A DNA stretch of 49,546 bases, from positions 1 to 49,546 of the forward strand of contig DATDPM010000012.1 in the NCBI GenBank assembly GCA_035292745.1, in the 5' to 3' direction. The position numbers and the translations under genes were made by a program. Below are positions 16,272 through 36,727 of this stretch, one piece after another (positions within the stretch are counted from its first letter, which is position 1; each line of letters opens with the position of its first letter). The notes under the pieces are model-generated. The model made no database searches, was not told the origin of the DNA, and saw only the letters and a program-made list of their open reading frames with translations. This DNA is from Alphaproteobacteria bacterium (GTDB taxonomy: Bacteria > Pseudomonadota > Alphaproteobacteria > DATDPM01).

Positions 16272-16358
16272 CTACCCCTCCGCCACTTTCTTCACCAAAA
16301 AATCGCGGAACGCGGTGAGCCGCCGTGCGTTACGCACCTCCTTCGAATAGACGAAATA
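16272..16358 (-). repeat. displaced duplicate of the last 28 codons plus stop of the lysR gene (copy A of an 87-bp direct repeat)
   Basis: Ungapped alignment to 17118-17204. It differs at 6 internal positions plus the stop codon (TAG vs TAA). Both copies translate to YFVYSKEVRNARRLTAFRDFLVKKVAEG*. Confidence 0.9.
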
Positions 16359-16373
16359 AGTCGTGCGCGTCCC

Positions 16374-16703
16374 CTAGCGGACGACGACAGACATCTCGGC
16401 GCGAGCCTTGCGCTTCGGTCCCACCGTGATCCGCACGTCTTGCCCGAGAGCCGTCAGAAACTCCATAAGGCGCTCGACGGAGAACGTACCGGATTGGCCC
16501 CGCATCAGCGCCGATACGTGCGGCTGCTTGATGCCGAGGATTTCGCCTGCCTGTGTCTGCTTCAATCCGCGCTTCTTGATGAGGCGATAGATTTGCAGCG
16601 TGAGGTGCGCCTTAAGCTGCTCACGCTCGGGGTTGGGGAAGCCCAGATCGGCGAATACGTTGCCGCTTCCTTCCTTGACGCGGGTGGTCTTTTTCCTGGC
16701 CAT
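16374..16703 (-). CDS. XRE-family helix-turn-helix antitoxin (HigA-like partner of the upstream toxin)
   Basis: 109-aa ORF with the HTH segment LKQTQAGEILGIKQPHVSALMRG. It starts 2 nt after the toxin stop. The toxin-first gene order is typical of HigBA-type modules. Confidence 0.75.
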   Translation of the reverse strand: MARKKTTRVKEGSGNVFADLGFPNPEREQLKAHLTLQIYRLIKKRGLKQTQAGEILGIKQPHVSALMRGQSGTFSVERLMEFLTALGQDVRITVGPKRKARAEMSVVVR

Positions 16704-16705
16704 GG

Positions 16706-17068
16706 CTAATTCTGCTTTCCTCCGTAGTTCCGTTCGGCGGCGGCAAGCCGCTGCCCGATCAGGTCCATTTCCTTCTTGGGTGTGGCGATGCCTTTCGTCG
16801 ATTTCTTCTGAAAGGCGTGGAGAACGTAGATCGCATCGCGAAAGCGCACGGTATACACTGTCCGATATGTGCCGCTGTCGTCGGCTGCGACGATCTCAAG
16901 GACGGATCGCCCTGCAAAGCCCTTGAGTGCCTTGACAGTGGGGTATTCCTCTCCGCATTGAGCGGCGTACAGCGCTTGTCCGATGTGCCGTTGCACGGCT
17001 TTCGGAAAAGCCTTGAGGTCTCTTCTCGATGACCCCACCCATCTGACGGGCTTCGGTTCGCCGTCCAC
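16706..17068 (-). CDS. RelE/ParE-superfamily toxin, phage Gp49-like / HigB-like
   Basis: 120-aa ORF (GTG start). VRWVGSSRRDLKAFPKAV...YRTVYTVRFRDAIYVLHAFQKKS matches the DUF891/Gp49-type toxin pattern as I recall it. It is tightly coupled to an HTH gene. Confidence 0.7.
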   Translation of the reverse strand: MDGEPKPVRWVGSSRRDLKAFPKAVQRHIGQALYAAQCGEEYPTVKALKGFAGRSVLEIVAADDSGTYRTVYTVRFRDAIYVLHAFQKKSTKGIATPKKEMDLIGQRLAAAERNYGGKQN

Positions 17069-17070
17069 GT

Positions 17071-17092
17071 TACGAATATACGTCTATTCGTA
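17071..17092 (-). promoter_or_regulatory. inverted repeat TACGAATA-N6-TATTCGTA immediately upstream of the toxin start, a candidate autoregulatory operator/promoter
   Basis: Perfect 8-bp arms at 17071-17078 and 17085-17092, 3 nt from the GTG at 17068. AT-rich -10-like hexamers overlap it on the minus strand. No Shine-Dalgarno sequence fits in the gap, so the transcript may be leaderless. Confidence 0.4.
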
Positions 17093-17117
17093 TATCCGGT
17101 CAAGTCCGGCAGCCTCG

Positions 17118-18005
17118 TTACCCCTCCGCCACTTTCTTCACCAGGAAATCGCGGAAGGCGGTGAGCCGCCGCGCGTTGCGCACCTCCTTGGAATAGACGA
17201 AATACGCCTCGACCTTGTGGCCTTCCAGCTCCGGCAGCACGCGCACCAGCGTCGGGTCCGATGCGCCCAGGTAATCGGGAAGCGCCGCCACGCCCAGGCC
17301 GCATTGCACCGCGCGGAATACGCCGTACACGGTATTGAGCTTAAGAGCCGGGCGGCGCGGGCGCGCCGGATCGGCGGCGAGCTCCAACAGCCAGCGCGCG
17401 TTGGGCAGCGGCGGCCGCGACAACGCGTCCCCGTAAGTGATCAGCCGGTGATCGCCGAGCTGCTCCGGCCGCTCCAGCGGCGGGGCTTTCTTCAAGTAAG
17501 CCTGGGCGGCGTATACGTAGAACCGCACCGTCAGCAGGCGCCGCTGGATCAGGTTCGGCTGCAAGGGCGGCGCCATGCGGATGGCGATATCGGCCTCGCC
17601 CATGGCGAGATCGAGCTGCCGGTCGTCGAGCACCAGCGTGACCTCGATGTCGGGATAACCGCTCAGAAACTCGCGGATGCGCGGCGTCAGCCAGATCGAG
17701 CCGAATCCGACCGTGGTGGTGATGCGCAGCGGCCCCGAGGGGCGCGCCCGGCTTTCGTACAGCTTGGATTCGGCGGCGGCGAGGCGCGCGTTGATGTCGC
17801 GGGTGGCGTCGAGCAGCAGCCGCCCGGCTTCCGTGAGCTTCAGCCCCCGGGCATGGCGGTGAAAGAGCGTGACCTTGAGGTTCGCCTCGAGCGCGCCGAT
17901 CTGGCGCGAGATGGCGGATTGGCTGAGGCTGAGCGCGCTGCTCGCGCTGGTGAAGCTGCCCGCCTCGGCCACCGTGTGGAAGATCCGGAGCTTGTCCCAA
18001 TCCAT
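17118..18005 (-). CDS. LysR-family transcriptional regulator
   Basis: MDWDKLRIFHTVAEAGSFTSASSALSLSQSAISRQIGALE is a canonical LysR winged-HTH N-terminus starting at ATG 18005. The track start at 18110 overlaps trxB. Its last 87 nt form copy B of the direct repeat. Confidence 0.9.
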   Translation of the reverse strand: MDWDKLRIFHTVAEAGSFTSASSALSLSQSAISRQIGALEANLKVTLFHRHARGLKLTEAGRLLLDATRDINARLAAAESKLYESRARPSGPLRITTTVGFGSIWLTPRIREFLSGYPDIEVTLVLDDRQLDLAMGEADIAIRMAPPLQPNLIQRRLLTVRFYVYAAQAYLKKAPPLERPEQLGDHRLITYGDALSRPPLPNARWLLELAADPARPRRPALKLNTVYGVFRAVQCGLGVAALPDYLGASDPTLVRVLPELEGHKVEAYFVYSKEVRNARRLTAFRDFLVKKVAEG

Positions 18006-31422: not shown

Positions 31423-33411
<1,989 letters not shown>

Positions 33412-33445: not shown

Positions 33446-34798
33446 GTGAATCTCAATCGCCTGCTGCGCGCGCCCGGGGCGGGGCTGTTGCTGCGCCCCT
33501 GGTACGACCGCGCGGCCATGCGGGCGCTCCGGCGATGGTACTTCCCCTTGTCGAGAGCCTGGGCGGCGGCGCTGGCCGCCGGAAAATCGCGCGAGGACTT
33601 CGCCCGCGAGGTGCCCTGCGCGCCGCCGCCGGCGGGCCTGACGGATTCGGCGCTCGCCGCGACCTTCCGCCTGAACCGCGCCTATGAACGCGCGCGGCGG
33701 GAGTGGGAGGACGCCTTCTTCGGCCCCGCGCGCGCAGCGCCGGGGCGTCTGCGCGACGCGGAATCGGCGCGCATCGCCGCCGCCCATGCGCTGATGTCGG
33801 CGCGCGCCCATTTCCTGCCCTTGCAGGCGTTCGCTAACTTTCCGCCCGTGCGCTTCGAGGTCGCCGACGGCGACACCGTGCGCCGCCACCATGGCGCGCG
33901 CCTCGCCGAGGGGCGCACCGGCTTTCCGGCGCCCGCGCCGCTTCCCGCCTTCGAGCGCTCGCGGCTCCTCGAGAACGCGGACAGTGACGCCTTCTGGCTG
34001 CGCTTCCCCTCGCCCGGACGGGTGGGCGACGTCGCCTGGGCGCGCGCCTTTCTTCCCGAAGGCGCCAAGCCGCGGGCCACCGTCGTTCTCGCCCACGGCG
34101 TAGCGATGGAAACCGAATTCTGGCGCGGCCTGGCCGCGCCCTATGAGGCGCTCTCCGCATCCGGCATCTGCACCATCGCGCCCGAGGGTCCGTTCCACGG
34201 CCGGCGCCGCCGCGACGGCCGCTACGGCGGCGAGGACGTGTTCTCGCTCGGGGTGCTCGGCCTCCTCGATTACTTCGAGGCCCATGTCGCCGAGTTGGCG
34301 GCGCTGGTCGCTTGGGCGCGCGCCGAATTCGGCGGGCCGGTCGCGCTGGTCGGGATCAGCCTCGGCGCCTTCGCCGCCCAGCTCGCGGCGGTTGCCTGCC
34401 GGGGCTGGCCGGCGGATATGCGCCCCGACGCCCTGCTCCTGGTCGCGGCCGGCGGCTCGCTGCTCGCCGCCGCCTTCGAGGGGACGCTGGCGCAGGCGCT
34501 CGGCATTCCAACGGCGCTTCGCACCGCAGGCTGGGGGCACGAGGACCTCGTAGGCTGGTTGCCGCTGCTCGAGGCGCGGGGCGCTCCGGCGTTGCCGCCC
34601 GAGCGCATCGTGGCCACGCTGGGCCGGGCCGACGACATCGCCCCCTATGCCGAGGGCCGCGCGCTCATGCGCGCCTGGGACGTGCCGGAGGAAAACGTGT
34701 TCGTGCGCGATCAGGGCCACTTCACGGCCTCGCTCGGGCTTTTTGCCGACGATGCGCCGCTGCGCCGCTTGGCCGATCTGCTGCTCGCGGCGCCGTGA
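33446..34798 (+). CDS. alpha/beta-hydrolase fold protein, function unknown
   Basis: 450-aa ORF (GTG start) with the nucleophile elbow GISLGAF (GxSxG) and a C-terminal HF... histidine context. It begins 35 nt after the rpoD stop. Confidence 0.6.
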   Translation: MNLNRLLRAPGAGLLLRPWYDRAAMRALRRWYFPLSRAWAAALAAGKSREDFAREVPCAPPPAGLTDSALAATFRLNRAYERARREWEDAFFGPARAAPGRLRDAESARIAAAHALMSARAHFLPLQAFANFPPVRFEVADGDTVRRHHGARLAEGRTGFPAPAPLPAFERSRLLENADSDAFWLRFPSPGRVGDVAWARAFLPEGAKPRATVVLAHGVAMETEFWRGLAAPYEALSASGICTIAPEGPFHGRRRRDGRYGGEDVFSLGVLGLLDYFEAHVAELAALVAWARAEFGGPVALVGISLGAFAAQLAAVACRGWPADMRPDALLLVAAGGSLLAAAFEGTLAQALGIPTALRTAGWGHEDLVGWLPLLEARGAPALPPERIVATLGRADDIAPYAEGRALMRAWDVPEENVFVRDQGHFTASLGLFADDAPLRRLADLLLAAP

Positions 34799-34849
34799 CG
34801 CGCGGAACGGGTGCTGCGCATGCGCTTCGGCTGCGCAACTTGACCCGTG

Positions 34850-34882
34850 GCCTGTGTAGGTATATACTCCTATACAGGTCTT
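34850..34882 (+). terminator. candidate intrinsic terminator after the hydrolase gene
   Basis: CCTGTGTAGG (34850-34859) pairs with CCTATACAGG (34868-34877): 10 bp with one G-U pair and an 8-nt loop. It is followed by TCTTTGG. Confidence 0.4.
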
Positions 34883-35251
34883 TGGCATCGTGAAACCCGG
34901 TGAACGCCGCGCATAACCGCACCCGCCTGGGCGCGGCTGCACAGCGCGGCTGCACGAATGCGATGATGACACCGCGGGCACGGGAGGCGAATAACGCGGC
35001 AAAAATCAGCCACAAGGCCGCATCCTGTCGCATCCCGTCGCATGGCGGCCCCGCCAGACCCGCTATTTTCCGGCCTTTGCGCGCGCGGGTGTTTACAAAT
35101 GTTGACATCCGCCGGGGAAAACCGGCGCCGCCCGCAACGCGACCTTGTCCCGAAGTCGTGAGAAGGTCCGAGCGAAGCGAGCGGGTGAGGGTAAGGCGAG
35201 GGCCGCGGCGCTGTTGCGTCGCGCCGGCTGACGTTATGCTTGGCCGAGGTG

Positions 35252-35328
35252 GGGCCCGTAGCTCAACTGGTTAGAGCCGGCCGCTCATAACGGTCTGGTT
35301 GGAGGTTCGAATCCTCCCGGGCCCACCA
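35252..35328 (+). tRNA. tRNA with CAT anticodon, elongator type (Met, or Ile2 if lysidine-modified)
   Basis: Hand-folded cloverleaf: acceptor GGGCCCG/CGGGCCC, D arm GCTC-AACTGGTTA-GAGC, anticodon arm GGCCG-CTCATAA-CGGTC, T arm GGAGG-TTCGAAT-CCTCC, encoded ACCA. The 1-72 G-C pair and the lack of three G-C pairs at the anticodon loop argue against an initiator. The C4-G69/C5-G68 pairs resemble E. coli tRNA-Ile2. Confidence 0.9.
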
Positions 35329-35456
35329 AGCGGGTGGCGTTGAGTTGGAGTTTCACCCAAGAGACACACAAGTAAGTATTTGGTGTTTATGCGATTGTCG
35401 CATCGCTCTTGACATGTGTGCCAATTGGGCGTACATGACCAAGTCAGTGTTGTTAC

Positions 35457-35503
35457 CCACGTAGCGGTTATGCGGGCCGAAGGCCCGCATAACCGCTACG
35501 TGG
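35457..35503. repeat. perfect 22-bp-arm inverted repeat (hairpin, 3-nt loop)
   Basis: CCACGTAGCGGTTATGCGGGCC-GAA-GGCCCGCATAACCGCTACGTGG. It lies between a TTGACA hexamer (35409-35414) and the tacA-like start at 35536. Confidence 0.9.
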
Positions 35504-35535
35504 CCGACAGGCCAACGAAATGTTCGGGCAAGATC

Positions 35536-35832
35536 ATGACGGCGCTTCCAGCAAACGACACGCGCGCGCGTAAAGATGAGCGCGTGGCGGTACGGGTCCC
35601 GGCGGATGTCAAGCAGACGCTGGAACGAGCGGCGTCATGCTCCGGCCGCAGCCTGTCCGACTTCGTGGTCGAGAGTGCGTTGCGCGCCGCTCAGCAAACG
35701 CTCGAAGCGAGTCTGAAGATGCAATTGGCCGAGAAGGACCGTCAGGTGTTTCTGGCAGCTCTCGTCACTCCGCCGATGCCGAACGCTGCATTGATGGCGG
35801 CTGCGAAACGATACGATCGCGCCAATAAATAG
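35536..35832 (+). CDS. DUF1778-family (TacA-like, ribbon-helix-helix) antitoxin
   Basis: MTALPANDTRARKDERVAVRVPADVKQTLERAASCSGRSLSDFVVESALRAAQQTLEA has the pattern of DUF1778 antitoxins paired with GNAT toxins. The track start at 35416 reads through the hairpin and is unlikely. Confidence 0.8.
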   Translation: MTALPANDTRARKDERVAVRVPADVKQTLERAASCSGRSLSDFVVESALRAAQQTLEASLKMQLAEKDRQVFLAALVTPPMPNAALMAAAKRYDRANK

Positions 35833-35844
35833 CGGAACGAGACG

Positions 35845-36339
35845 GTGCCCGTCTCAATCCGGCCGCTCGGGAAGAAGCATGATCGGGCGGCTTTTTCGTG
35901 CGGTGTCGAGGCGCTCGACAAATACCTCCGCGTGCAGGCCGGACAAGACCAGCGGAAAGGCCTCGCGAGGGTATTCGTCGCGGAGGCGCAAGAACGAGGA
36001 ACCGTTGCGGGATTTTATACGTTGAGCACGATTAGCGTCGACGTTGGTGCACTGCCCGCCGAGCTTTCAGAACGGATTCCGTATTCGGACGTTCCGGCTG
36101 CATTGATAGGCCGTCTCGCCGTCGATCGGCGTTACCAAGGACAGAGGCTCGGCGAGCACTTGCTCATTGATGCCCTAAAACGCATCGTAGACATCAGCCA
36201 AACCATGGCGATCCTTGCAGTCGTCGTGGACGCGAAAGAGGGTGCGGTTTCTTTCTATCGGAAATATGGCTTCATCCCATTTCCGAATCGGCCCGATCGC
36301 CTGTTTCTGCCGGTAGCTACGGCCCGGAAATTATTTTAG
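35845..36339 (+). CDS. GNAT-family N-acetyltransferase toxin (TacT/AtaT-like)
   Basis: 164-aa ORF. KKHDRAAFSCGVEALDKYL, LIGRLAVDRRYQGQRLGEHLL (acetyl-CoA motif A) and SFYRKYGFIPF. It lies 12 nt downstream of the DUF1778 gene. Confidence 0.8.
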   Translation: MPVSIRPLGKKHDRAAFSCGVEALDKYLRVQAGQDQRKGLARVFVAEAQERGTVAGFYTLSTISVDVGALPAELSERIPYSDVPAALIGRLAVDRRYQGQRLGEHLLIDALKRIVDISQTMAILAVVVDAKEGAVSFYRKYGFIPFPNRPDRLFLPVATARKLF

Positions 36340-36363
36340 GGGCGCGCGTCGCGGCGACGGCCG

Positions 36364-36388
36364 GAGCCGGCCGCTCATGACGGTGTGG
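36364..36388 (+). repeat. partial degenerate copy of the tRNA(CAT) D-stem/anticodon arm
   Basis: GAGCCGGCCGCTCATgACGGTgTGG versus tRNA positions 35274-35298 GAGCCGGCCGCTCATaACGGTcTGG: 23/25 identical, including a 15-nt exact run. Confidence 0.7.
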
Positions 36389-36430
36389 AACGGCGATGCC
36401 TGCAACGTCGATTATGTCGATTACCATTAG
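36386..36430 (+). pseudogene. higB: 3'-terminal remnant of a higB (plasmid-maintenance killer family) toxin gene
   Basis: Encodes WNGDACNVDYVDYH*, matching the conserved HigB C-terminus (...NGDA....Y.DYH). Only 38 codons are open upstream (stop at 36314-36316) and they lack HigB character. The stop overlaps the AGGAG of the following higA, as in intact higBA operons. Confidence 0.65.
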
Positions 36431-36436
36431 GAGACC

Positions 36437-36727
36437 ATGATGATGATGAAGAATCCGCCGCACCCCGGCCGGATCGTAAGGCAAGACTGCATTGAGCCTT
36501 TGGGGCTGACGGTGACCGAAGGGGCGGAGATTCTCGGCGTAACCCGCCAGGCGTTGAACAACCTCGTCAACGGGCGGGGCGGGATTTCTCCCGAGATGGC
36601 GGTGCGGCTATCCAAGGCTTTCGGCGGCGGCCCCGAAATATGGCTTGGAATGCAGATGCAGTACGACCTGGCCCAGGTCCGCAAGAAGGCCGCGCAAATC
36701 AAAGTGCGGCGCTACCGCGCCGCCTGA
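36437..36727 (+). CDS. higA: HigA-family antitoxin (XRE HTH, addiction module antidote protein)
   Basis: MMMMKNPPHPGRIVRQDCIEPLGLTVTEGAEILGVTRQALNNLVNGRGGISPEMAVRLSKAFGGGPEIWLGMQMQYDL is the canonical HigA/VapI pattern. Confidence 0.85.
   Translation: MMMMKNPPHPGRIVRQDCIEPLGLTVTEGAEILGVTRQALNNLVNGRGGISPEMAVRLSKAFGGGPEIWLGMQMQYDLAQVRKKAAQIKVRRYRAA

Follow-up and report, generated by a model that had tools for sequence, protein, structure and literature searches.

How a small toxin-antitoxin pair came to lie between a tRNA gene and a partial copy of that same gene is the question raised by this locus of an alphaproteobacterial genome, found in a window of 49,546 nucleotides (the whole stretch of DNA that was analysed) belonging to a 1.57-Mb metagenome-assembled genome that is 75% complete. 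The original prediction described a TacA/TacT-like module located between a tRNA(CAT) gene and a partial copy of it, in a lower-GC segment 3' of the tRNA, and this anatomy was borne out by ARAGORN, by Pfam and by alignment; the GC content is 0.54 to 0.62 over positions 35300-36500, as compared to 0.66 in the genome. The evidence presented below suggests that the locus is probably an eroded mobile element that integrated site-specifically in tRNA(CAT), at an anticodon-centred att site, and has lost its integrase. The tacA and tacT genes are the only complete cargo genes left in this putative island remnant.

The TacAT pair and its flanks

The features of the region, all of them on the + strand, are the following:

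31423-33411, +: rpoD (sigma-70), a 662-aa ORF; its place to the left of the tRNA is conserved among relatives
35252-35328, +: tRNA(CAT) gene, intact, putatively the regenerated target (attL side); ARAGORN, and Rfam RF00005 with 65.7 bits
35329-35535, +: cassette leader of low GC (0.54), holding a 47-nt perfect palindrome (35457-35503)
35536-35832, +: tacA-like antitoxin gene (DUF1778/ribbon-helix-helix); PF08681 TacA1, E 4e-21
35845-36339, +: tacT-like GNAT toxin gene; PF00583 (E 1e-9), PF13508 and PF13673
36364-36388, +: putative remnant of the displaced tRNA fragment (attR); 23/25 against 35274-35298, unique in the genome
36389-36430, +: 3' remnant of higB, its last 13 codons (NGDACNVDYVDYH) and stop; aligns with 15 intact higB ends
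36437-36727, +: orphan higA antitoxin gene; TIGR02607 antidote_HigA with 105 bits (cut-off 47.7), and PF01381
36844-38526, +: ettA-like ABC-F ATPase gene, conserved right flank of the variable region; two ABC_tran domains and ABC_tran_Xtn

The tRNA gene is the only one recognized by ARAGORN in the window, and it is 92-96% identical to tRNAs of family and class relatives. A class-wide BLAST search with the 77-nt gene showed a widespread tRNA and taught nothing on partial copies, for which a pattern scan of the relatives' genomes was used instead. It is probably a tRNA-Ile2, elongator tRNA-Met being the alternative; the pairs C4:G69, U12:A23 and C29:G41 agree with the identity set of Escherichia coli tRNA-Ile, which favours Ile2. 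The rpoD gene is near tRNA(CAT) in many class relatives, the gap being of only 70-110 nt in G003 (a genome of the same genus) and G004, and comparison with relatives indicates that the rpoD/tRNA side of the window is highly conserved DNA. Past position 33261, no drop in identity to relatives that might have told of a replacement of the 3' end of rpoD was found, a result that is uninformative. A 33-nt rpoD fragment is also present directly after a hydrolase gene in the window.

Only 207 nt, those of the leader, separate the tRNA from tacA. The leader bears no similarity to the sequence found downstream of the tRNA in G003, and its palindrome, of which the genome has no other copy, has a folding energy of -50 kcal/mol (z = -10.7). 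The tacA gene lies directly upstream of tacT, with a gap of 12 nt. The best matches of TacA in the PDB are the DUF1778 antitoxins of the TacAT, KacAT and AtaRT complexes (7zg5, 5zgn, 6ajm), and those of TacT, as found with phmmer (E from 1e-17 to 7e-23), are 7f37, 6g96 and 5fvj (TacT), 6ajm (AtaT) and 5zgn (KacT). Tyr138 of TacT falls in an aligned C-terminal FY motif that is conserved among GNAT toxins, and presumably has a catalytic role. Judging from their sequences, the two genes form a standard type II module that should work as such: TacT would acetylate the amino group of charged tRNAs, thereby blocking translation, and TacA would bind and neutralize it. Relatives of TacT in 185,579 species genomes are at most 56% identical and come from many different phyla, a scatter that would be expected of mobile cargo; within the order, homologues were found in G002 and G003 only, at about 50% identity and on other contigs, not at the tRNA site.

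A link between the activity of the toxin and its adjacency to tRNA(CAT), which had been put forward as a speculation, was rejected. A tRNA gene is located within 3 kb of 5 of the 80 loci that carry TacT homologues, which on a rough estimate is about the background rate, and these tRNAs are of four other identities (His, Phe in two cases, Gly and Val), none of them being CAT. Moreover, what TacT-type toxins recognize in a tRNA is not the anticodon arm but the acceptor stem together with the aminoacyl group (PMC9177977).

On the right side, HigA is 77% identical in amino acids to that of G003, and the position of higA before ettA is the same in both genomes. No intact HigB toxin gene is present upstream of higA, where only the 13 codons and the stop are left. 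The ettA gene is found downstream of tRNA(CAT), on the same contig, in G003, G004, G010 and G015.

The partial tRNA copy and its right edge

Re-alignment of the copy (GAGCCGGCCGCTCATGACGGTGTGG) with positions 35274-35298 (GAGCCGGCCGCTCATAACGGTCTGG) gave the same figures as originally stated, with 23 of 25 positions identical, including the first 15 in a row. The copy corresponds to positions 23-47 of the tRNA gene, that is, the 3' strand of the D-stem, the anticodon arm and the start of the variable region, and it lies on the strand of the tRNA, 1.1 kb away from it and 24 nt past the tacT stop. None of 100 dinucleotide shuffles rendered two such matches. All 53 25-mers of the tRNA were then compared with both strands of the whole 1.57-Mb assembly (3.1 Mb of strands), requiring at least 23/25 identities, and the matches besides the tRNA itself were the copy at 36364 and the 5' end of a probable tRNA gene on contig C21. 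The copy is therefore not a common repeat of the genome, a possibility raised in the original prediction, and a chance match was rejected on the basis of both the shuffles and the genome scan. A tRNA-like or decoy RNA at the copy was rejected as well, since neither ARAGORN, the check that had been proposed, nor Rfam at E<=1 detected any further tRNA-like structure in 36340-36440, and folding is no better than that of shuffles (z of +0.8 and +1.2).

At its right edge, the copy is joined by a deletion to a higB that has lost its 5' part. Column identity to 15 intact higB genes, including those of G003 and G001, jumps at position 36389. An origin of the 25-mer itself from higB was rejected, since its last 9 nt agree with the tRNA at 8/9 positions as against 3/9 with higB of G003 (columns counted by hand on the alignments) and identity to higB begins only at 36389. 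It is because the deletion fused the presumed attR remnant to higB that the T-arm is missing. At the joint (36388/36389), possible microhomology amounts to a few bases at the most (tRNA CGGTCTG versus higB CGGTTTGAGG); a 6/7 match (CGGTxTG) is possible with a higB of the G003 type, the observed joint requiring extra changes.

The structure was recovered in five contigs encoding an identical TacT, three from ENA metagenome assemblies, which may include the source of the genome, and two from Logan assemblies of SRA runs. These contigs match the window over 0.9-2.3 kb; identity is 100% in four of them and 99.7%, with unmatched ends, in the fifth. The 25-mer is present in all five, as is the higB remnant, in whole or in part; the tRNA is complete in two, and four extend as far as higA or further. 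Since they give the same structure, misassembly of the locus was rejected.

Integration at the same tRNA type

In G003, the order of features is rpoD, tRNA, a DUF2630 gene, a displaced tRNA copy (positions ca. 18-76), ca. 4.8 kb of unrelated genes, intact higBA and ettA. The G003 locus thus bears the scar of a separate integration event at this tRNA, and its higBA-ettA order is likely to be the ancestral arrangement. The tRNA-to-ettA interval differs in each of the relatives examined, the content after the tRNA being different in G003, G004, G015 and G038; in G010 the interval is empty, with only 22 nt between the tRNA and ettA. The comparison of occupied and empty sites that had been recommended thus rendered an empty site and otherwise variable contents, among relatives that include no truly close strain. 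Relatives have the 25-nt sequence once, inside the tRNA, while the window retains 25 nt of duplication, and no relative without the TA module was found to carry the 25-mer at the same position.

Four intact displaced copies of this tRNA type, in G003, in the class relative G262, in G050 and in the prophage G205, start at positions 18-31 and reach the CCA end. The prophage, of 52 kb and with an integrase, has a full tRNA as attL and positions 29-77, 100% identical, as attR; in G050, the copy extends from position 31 to the CCA and is located 35.7 kb downstream; and in G262, a truncated tyrosine-integrase ORF lies directly 3' of the tRNA. The left end of the block of identity is at position 23 (perhaps 18) in the window, at 18-23 in G003 and at ca. 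20 in G262, with cargo and left flanks that are mutually unrelated in the three genomes. The search for the 25-mer in mobile elements succeeded for the tRNA version, which 25 viral contigs of IMG/VR carry exactly as part of a full tRNA(CAT) gene, four of them with a PF00589 integrase within ca. 110 nt of the tRNA 3' end, whereas the version of the copy is absent from IMG/VR. The DNA of the module has no match in PLSDB plasmids or INPHARED phages, and no fuller island with the TacAT cassette was found among the relatives examined; these results, together with a best TacT relative of 56%, led us to reject a known donor element.

These observations bear on the shape of the copy, which had been considered abnormal. 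Its start in the D-stem and anticodon arm is not, considering the starts of the four intact copies and the fact that anticodon-centred attP sites are the larger class in the Islander survey, with 2083 of 3919 tRNA islands (Hudson et al. 2015, PMC4383910); the loss of its T-arm half is, and corresponds to the higB joint at 36389. What defines tRNA islands is the combination of a regenerated target with a displaced fragment (PMC4383910; PMC2853133). The window has an intact tRNA at one end, a displaced fragment in the same orientation at the other, and a site that differs among relatives, all of them features used by Islander, which further expects a fragment running to the 3' end of the tRNA and a tyrosine integrase inside the island; here the fragment stops at position 47, higB following from 36389, and neither an integrase gene nor a pseudogene was found in 35329-36363 by means of the ORF list and a domain search. 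As originally noted, no integrase remains in the segment: the only two PF00589 matches in the assembly are on other contigs (C37 and C20), and an integrase could lie in the unassembled part of the genome.

The following order of events can be proposed. An integrating element would have supplied a new 3' part to the tRNA, yielding the intact gene at 35252-35328 (attL), and the original 3' part (from ca. 18-23 to the CCA) would have ended up at the opposite end of the element (attR). Loss of the integrase and of nearly all the cargo would have come later, tacA-tacT surviving plausibly because selection acts against cells that lose an addictive toxin-antitoxin module. Another deletion would have run from position 47 of attR into the neighbouring chromosomal higBA module, removing the T-arm and acceptor half of the copy, the intervening DNA and higB except for its last 13 codons, with the outcome that the 25-nt copy is fused to the tail of higB and followed by an orphan higA. 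This secondary deletion must be assumed, since 25 nt are left of a presumed attR block of at least 55 nt, and, because no integrase survives, integrase-mediated entry of the TacAT cassette is proposed by analogy. Three alternatives had been listed originally, namely a heavily eroded att site, an anticodon-loop-targeting recombinase followed by deletion, and an illegitimate recombination junction; the second is essentially supported, and the original interpretation as a whole holds in part.

Alternative origins and comparison with known systems

An insertion with long target duplication, by the poorly understood, recombinase-free route known for restriction-modification units, has to be weighed against the integrase reading. 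TacAT would have entered beside the tRNA, leaving on each of its sides a copy of the target from tRNA position ca. 23 to past the 3' end; the later loss of higB would have taken with it the distal portion of the second of these copies. This class of events is documented (Furuta, Abe and Kobayashi 2010, PMC2853133, citing Nobusato et al. 2000), the insert is small (ca. 1.0 kb) and without a mobility gene, and the window contains both the rpoD fragment after the hydrolase gene and a HigBA-like cassette between two copies, 86 nt long and 93% identical, of the 3' end of lysR (16273 and 17119), a TA cassette that has a target duplication and no recombinase and thus counts against the integrase reading. 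On the other hand, it is a tRNA gene that was targeted, and its duplicated part begins at the point from which anticodon-centred att blocks extend; the left end is common to two independent scars with other cargo (G003 and G262, the latter with its integrase fragment), whereas such duplications are described as variable in position; and a secondary deletion is needed here too. The authors of PMC2853133 also caution that tRNA-like flanking repeats accompanied by an integrase gene may indicate site-specific recombination. We consider this route unlikely, and slightly less likely still that a single recombinase-independent route, in which part of the adjoining conserved gene is copied across the insert, brought TacAT, the HigBA-like cassette found next to the 3' end of lysR (16273-17204) and, perhaps, the hydrolase gene that follows rpoD. 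If this were the case, a window of 50 kb would record three long-target-duplication events, one of them in a tRNA and mimicking an integrase scar. The presence in the window of several cassettes with flanking target copies, the one aspect of wider interest, bears on how toxin-antitoxin cassettes move.

The remaining explanations account for the copy in other ways. It can be thought that tRNA-tacAT-attR arrived in one step in donor DNA, through homologous recombination at rpoD/tRNA, for which the highly conserved left flank could serve as anchor, and illegitimate recombination inside higB, as the scant microhomology at the joint would allow; this very unlikely event merely shifts the origin of the copy to a donor, which still needs an att-type duplication, and searches of genomes, plasmids, phages and viral contigs turned up nothing resembling a donor. 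Even less credible is a relic of a tandem tRNA duplicate or pseudogene, older than the cassette, with TacAT landing between the copies: duplication does occur in the genus, as G003 has, on contig C11, another complete gene of this tRNA type, but two full tandem tRNA(CAT) genes were seen at the locus in no relative, the copies in the window and in G003 lack the tRNA 5' part (from 1 to ca. 17-22), as displaced 3' fragments do, and the copy is only 24 nt from the tacT stop. Least probable of all is a chance resemblance in GC-rich DNA, or an anticodon-arm mimic serving the toxin module as decoy or regulator. Fragments like CGCTCATGACGGTG do arise by chance in GC-rich coding DNA (contig C11, and a chance match of 20/22 in G199) and GNAT toxins act on charged tRNAs; against this, the copy is the sole non-tRNA match of at least 23/25 in 3.1 Mb of strands and shares the strand of the tRNA, at a distance of 1.1 kb, it has no stable or tRNA-like fold, and tRNA(CAT) is within 3 kb of none of the 80 loci with TacT homologues, where nearby tRNAs are not above a rough background.

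If an integrase did bring the cassette, as we favour, the locus is an ordinary decayed genomic island, of low interest in itself. It would nevertheless be a clean example of the decay of tRNA-linked islands, in which integrase and cargo vanish and the addictive TA pair goes last, with deletions ending where lethality would begin, since the toxin gene higB was removed while the antitoxin gene higA and the whole of tacAT were spared. It also implies that short fragments from the interior of a tRNA need be nothing more exotic than truncated att sites, which may aid the annotation of island boundaries in fragmentary metagenome genomes.

Among known systems, the islands and prophages of Islander class A, with anticodon-centred attP (PMC4383910, which cites Williams 2002), share with the window the intact regenerated tRNA at one end, the same-strand displaced fragment starting 5' of the anticodon loop at the other, foreign low-GC cargo, variable occupancy among relatives and a tRNA type used by integrase-bearing elements. 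The window differs from them in having no integrase, in the ca. 1.1 kb that is left, and in a fragment cut at position 47, because of the deletion that fused it to higB, rather than at the CCA. The long-target-duplication units of PMC2853133 resemble it as small addictive cassettes without a mobility gene between copies of the adjacent target; in the window, by contrast, the target is a tRNA at a classical att sublocation, the boundaries recur in independent events, and the retained repeat of 25 nt is below the 30 bp used as a criterion there, although the rest may be deleted. The type II modules of the GNAT/DUF1778 kind (TacAT, AtaRT, KacAT and ItaRT) have the same antitoxin-first order, TacA1/DUF1778 and GNAT domains and C-terminal Tyr, and their complexes are the best matches of the pair among solved structures; the pair departs from them in an identity of at most 56% to any TacT homologue found and in the 47-nt palindrome of its leader. 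Finally, decayed HigBA modules with an orphan HigA likewise have the toxin gene destroyed and the antitoxin gene intact, with the last 12-15 codons of higB upstream of higA, a pattern also present in the metagenomic higA loci L125, L130, L135, L167 and L192. What distinguishes the window from these is that the other end of the deletion lies inside the att remnant of the neighbouring, putative island.

The tRNA(CAT) gene, the TacAT module and the partial copy

Features at the tRNA(CAT) locus
35252-35328, + strand: tRNA(CAT) gene, Ile2 or elongator Met, the single tRNA of the window (Rfam tRNA, 65.7 bits)
207 nt, 3' of the tRNA: low-GC leader between the tRNA and tacA
35536-35832: tacA, TacA1/DUF1778 antitoxin gene (PF08681, E 4e-21)
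35845-36339: tacT, GNAT acetyltransferase gene
36364-36388, + strand: partial tRNA copy, matching tRNA gene positions 23-47 (35274-35298) at 23/25
36389-36430: higB 3' remnant, 42 nt before higA, encoding NGDACNVDYVDYH and a stop
36437-36727: HTH_3 gene, HigA antitoxin (TIGR02607 equivalog, 105 bits)

The predicted layout of a toxin-antitoxin (TA) pair between the tRNA and a 25-nt partial copy of it is confirmed, the opening 15 bases of the copy being identical to the tRNA. When each 25-mer of the tRNA was compared on both strands with the entire 1.57-Mb assembly, a 75%-complete MAG, at a threshold of at least 23/25, the only matches besides the tRNA itself were the copy and one site on contig C21, which is probably the 5' end of another tRNA gene. 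Shuffled sequence reproduced the match of the copy to the tRNA in no case. The copy is therefore not a dispersed repeat, in line with the original prediction, and chance resemblance is an unlikely explanation. Misassembly was ruled out by five contigs encoding an identical TacT (ENA ERZ27254860, ERZ27254861 and ERZ27254863; Logan SRR3989295 and SRR3969907). Their alignments to the window cover 0.9-2.3 kb of this stretch, and identity is 100% in four and 99.7% in the fifth, whose ends do not match. Each contains the 25-mer together with at least part of the higB remnant; the tRNA is complete in two, and higA is reached or passed in four.

The best solved relatives of TacT (7f37, 6g96, TacT 5fvj, AtaT 6ajm and KacT 5zgn; E 1e-17 to 7e-23) are tRNA-acetylating GNAT toxins, TacA matches the DUF1778 antitoxins from those same toxin complexes, and Tyr138 of TacT lies within the conserved C-terminal FY motif. 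By family membership, TacAT would be a type II module acetylating aminoacyl-tRNAs (PMC6125619, PMC7595197, PMC9177977, PMC9241777). Homologues of TacT are spread across many phyla, the closest among 185,579 species genomes showing 56% identity, and DNA similar to the module was not found among the plasmids or phages searched. A second, distant TacT-like GNAT gene (38% identity) is located at 1464-1919 of contig C31 of the same genome. A 47-nt perfect palindrome (35457-35503) with a 22-bp stem and a GAA loop (-50 kcal/mol, z = -10.7) is located 33 nt ahead of the tacA start. It occurs once in the genome, no T-tract follows it, and its role could be that of an operator, an insulator or a hairpin that stabilises the transcript.

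A functional link between the toxin and tRNA(CAT), which had been raised as a speculation, was not borne out. A tRNA lies no further than 3 kb away in only 5 of 80 loci with TacT homologues (His, Phe twice, Gly and Val), a rate close to background by a rough estimate, and none of the 80 has a tRNA(CAT) at that distance. Moreover, TacT recognises the acceptor stem and the aminoacyl moiety, not the anticodon arm (PMC9177977), and the copy folds no better than shuffled sequence; that it acts as a functional mimic is unlikely. That the module sits beside a tRNA is accounted for by the use of tRNA genes as integration sites.

Use of this tRNA type as an att site

The order rpoD, tRNA(CAT), variable stretch, ettA is seen on single contigs of several relatives in the class. 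In G003, of the same genus, the tRNA is followed by a DUF2630 gene, a degenerate tRNA copy (positions ~18-76), ~4.8 kb of unrelated genes (encoding an IS630-type transposase, a metallo-beta-lactamase-rhodanese protein, a bestrophin-like protein and others), intact higBA and ettA; from higA to ettA, G003 and the window share order and similar spacing, at 76% DNA and 77% amino-acid identity. G004 and G015 have different genes between the tRNA and ettA, G038 has others again after the tRNA, and the whole gap is 22 nt in G010. TacT is absent from this site in all five other genomes of the order, among which only 50%-identical paralogues are seen, at other places. Among these relatives, all compared at species level or more distant, the tRNA site is thus a hot spot whose content is specific to each lineage; the ancestral state of the genus was likely tRNA ... 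higBA-ettA.

The Islander survey, in which tRNA islands are defined by a regenerated tRNA and a displaced fragment, found an anticodon-centred attP in 2083 of 3919 islands and 3' fragments in 3760 (PMC4383910). The exact 25-mer is present in 25 IMG/VR viral contigs, inside a tRNA(CAT) gene that is complete in 24 (the remaining contig starts within it), and four of the 25 encode a tyrosine integrase (PF00589) no more than ~110 nt from the 3' end of the tRNA. A 55-kb viral record has the full tRNA with integrase and a 100% identical copy of positions 29-77, bracketing ~52 kb. Among 401 genomes of the class, a pattern scan yielded two further pairs. The copy in G050 starts at position 31, reaches CCA and is located 35.7 kb downstream; that in G262 starts at about position 20, also reaches CCA and is located 86.7 kb downstream, and the tRNA of G262 is immediately followed by a truncated integrase ORF. 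This tRNA type is used as an att site, and the Islander counts together with the viral, G050, G262 and G003 copies contradict the notion that duplication of the anticodon arm is abnormal for one. In the window the identity block begins at position 23 (perhaps 18), in G003 at 18-23 and in G262 at ~20, with unrelated cargo and left flanks in the three, which argues that in the 25-mer the proximal half of an ordinary att block is retained.

The higB joint and the origin of the segment

The peptide NGDACNVDYVDYH can be aligned with the C-terminus of intact HigB from G003, from G001 (same genus) and from 13 metagenomic higBA loci, and column identity to those 15 higB genes rises sharply at 36389. 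Counted by column on the alignments, the nine bases before it, ACGGTGTGG, agree with the tRNA at 8/9 and with G003 higB at 3/9. On these alignments, the right end of the 25-mer is a deletion joint with a decapitated higB, possibly mediated by a few bases of microhomology, so that no T-arm follows the copy.

Decapitated or internally deleted higB beside intact higA recurs in metagenomes (L125, L130, L135, L167 and L192), L135 being an in-frame join of the N- and C-terminal ends (MIQRFKHKGLRRLFQQGDVEEGDVYDVDLIDYH*). Many higA homologues lie behind a deletion-destroyed higB whose final 10-15 codons are kept, which suggests that the tail carries higA translation signals. In G003 the higB frame (L023, 7249-7761) lacks a stop codon and reads into higA (DYHYSVAIGERTMPMKM...), the 170-aa HigB-HigA ORF being a genuine fusion or else the result of a sequencing error. 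Metagenomic higBA is also found ~100 nt downstream of a different tRNA-Met(CAT) (L179, 877-1614) and of tRNA-Val (L191, 3748-4489), so HigBA cassettes occur at tRNA sites too.

We consider it likely that the segment is an eroded island, integrated at an anticodon-centred att site and later deleted into higB. A tacAT-bearing element would have integrated at the tRNA, its integrase and other cargo would subsequently have been lost, and a deletion would have joined the displaced fragment, at its position 47, to higB at codon ~79. As had been noticed, no integrase remains: only 207 nt separate the tRNA from tacA, and the two tyrosine recombinase genes of the assembly, probably xerC and xerD, are both on other contigs. 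The deletion pattern fits TA biology, the toxin HigB being expendable and the antitoxin HigA not, and tacAT, kept whole, may have been retained by addiction.

[quoted passage not shown] Site-specific integration is favoured, however, by the target being a tRNA, by the standard sublocation and by a left boundary that recurs, and the rival would need a later deletion too; we regard it as improbable. A tRNA with a partial copy could also be read as a tandem tRNA pseudogene, and the conserved left flank as the anchor of a one-step import; both are unlikely.

Another copy is found next to the locus. A 33-nt stretch of the rpoD region 4.2 coding sequence (33229-33261) recurs at 34799-34831 (30/33, 21 identical in a row), reading in frame as 11 residues with synonymous differences from rpoD, directly after the stop of an alpha/beta-hydrolase gene (33446-34798, GC 0.72-0.79) that stands between rpoD and the tRNA. 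In G003 and G004 rpoD lies 70-110 nt from the tRNA, without the hydrolase; G005, from a different genus of the family, shares the rpoD-hydrolase junction at 84% identity over 710 nt. This layout parallels the tRNA/TacAT scar. Upstream of the tRNA, just after a strong promoter-like site (TTGACC-17-TATACT, 34840-34868), begins an intergenic stretch (34854-35125) with partial copies at 69-87% identity on three other contigs of this genome (C33, C60 and C81) and in six or more places in G001. It may represent a small RNA or a repeat confined to the genus.

Of the interpretation first proposed, the att site with a later deletion stands as the likely reading, and the abnormal copy and the toxin-tRNA link fall away. 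The feature is real but ordinary, a further instance of a well-known kind.
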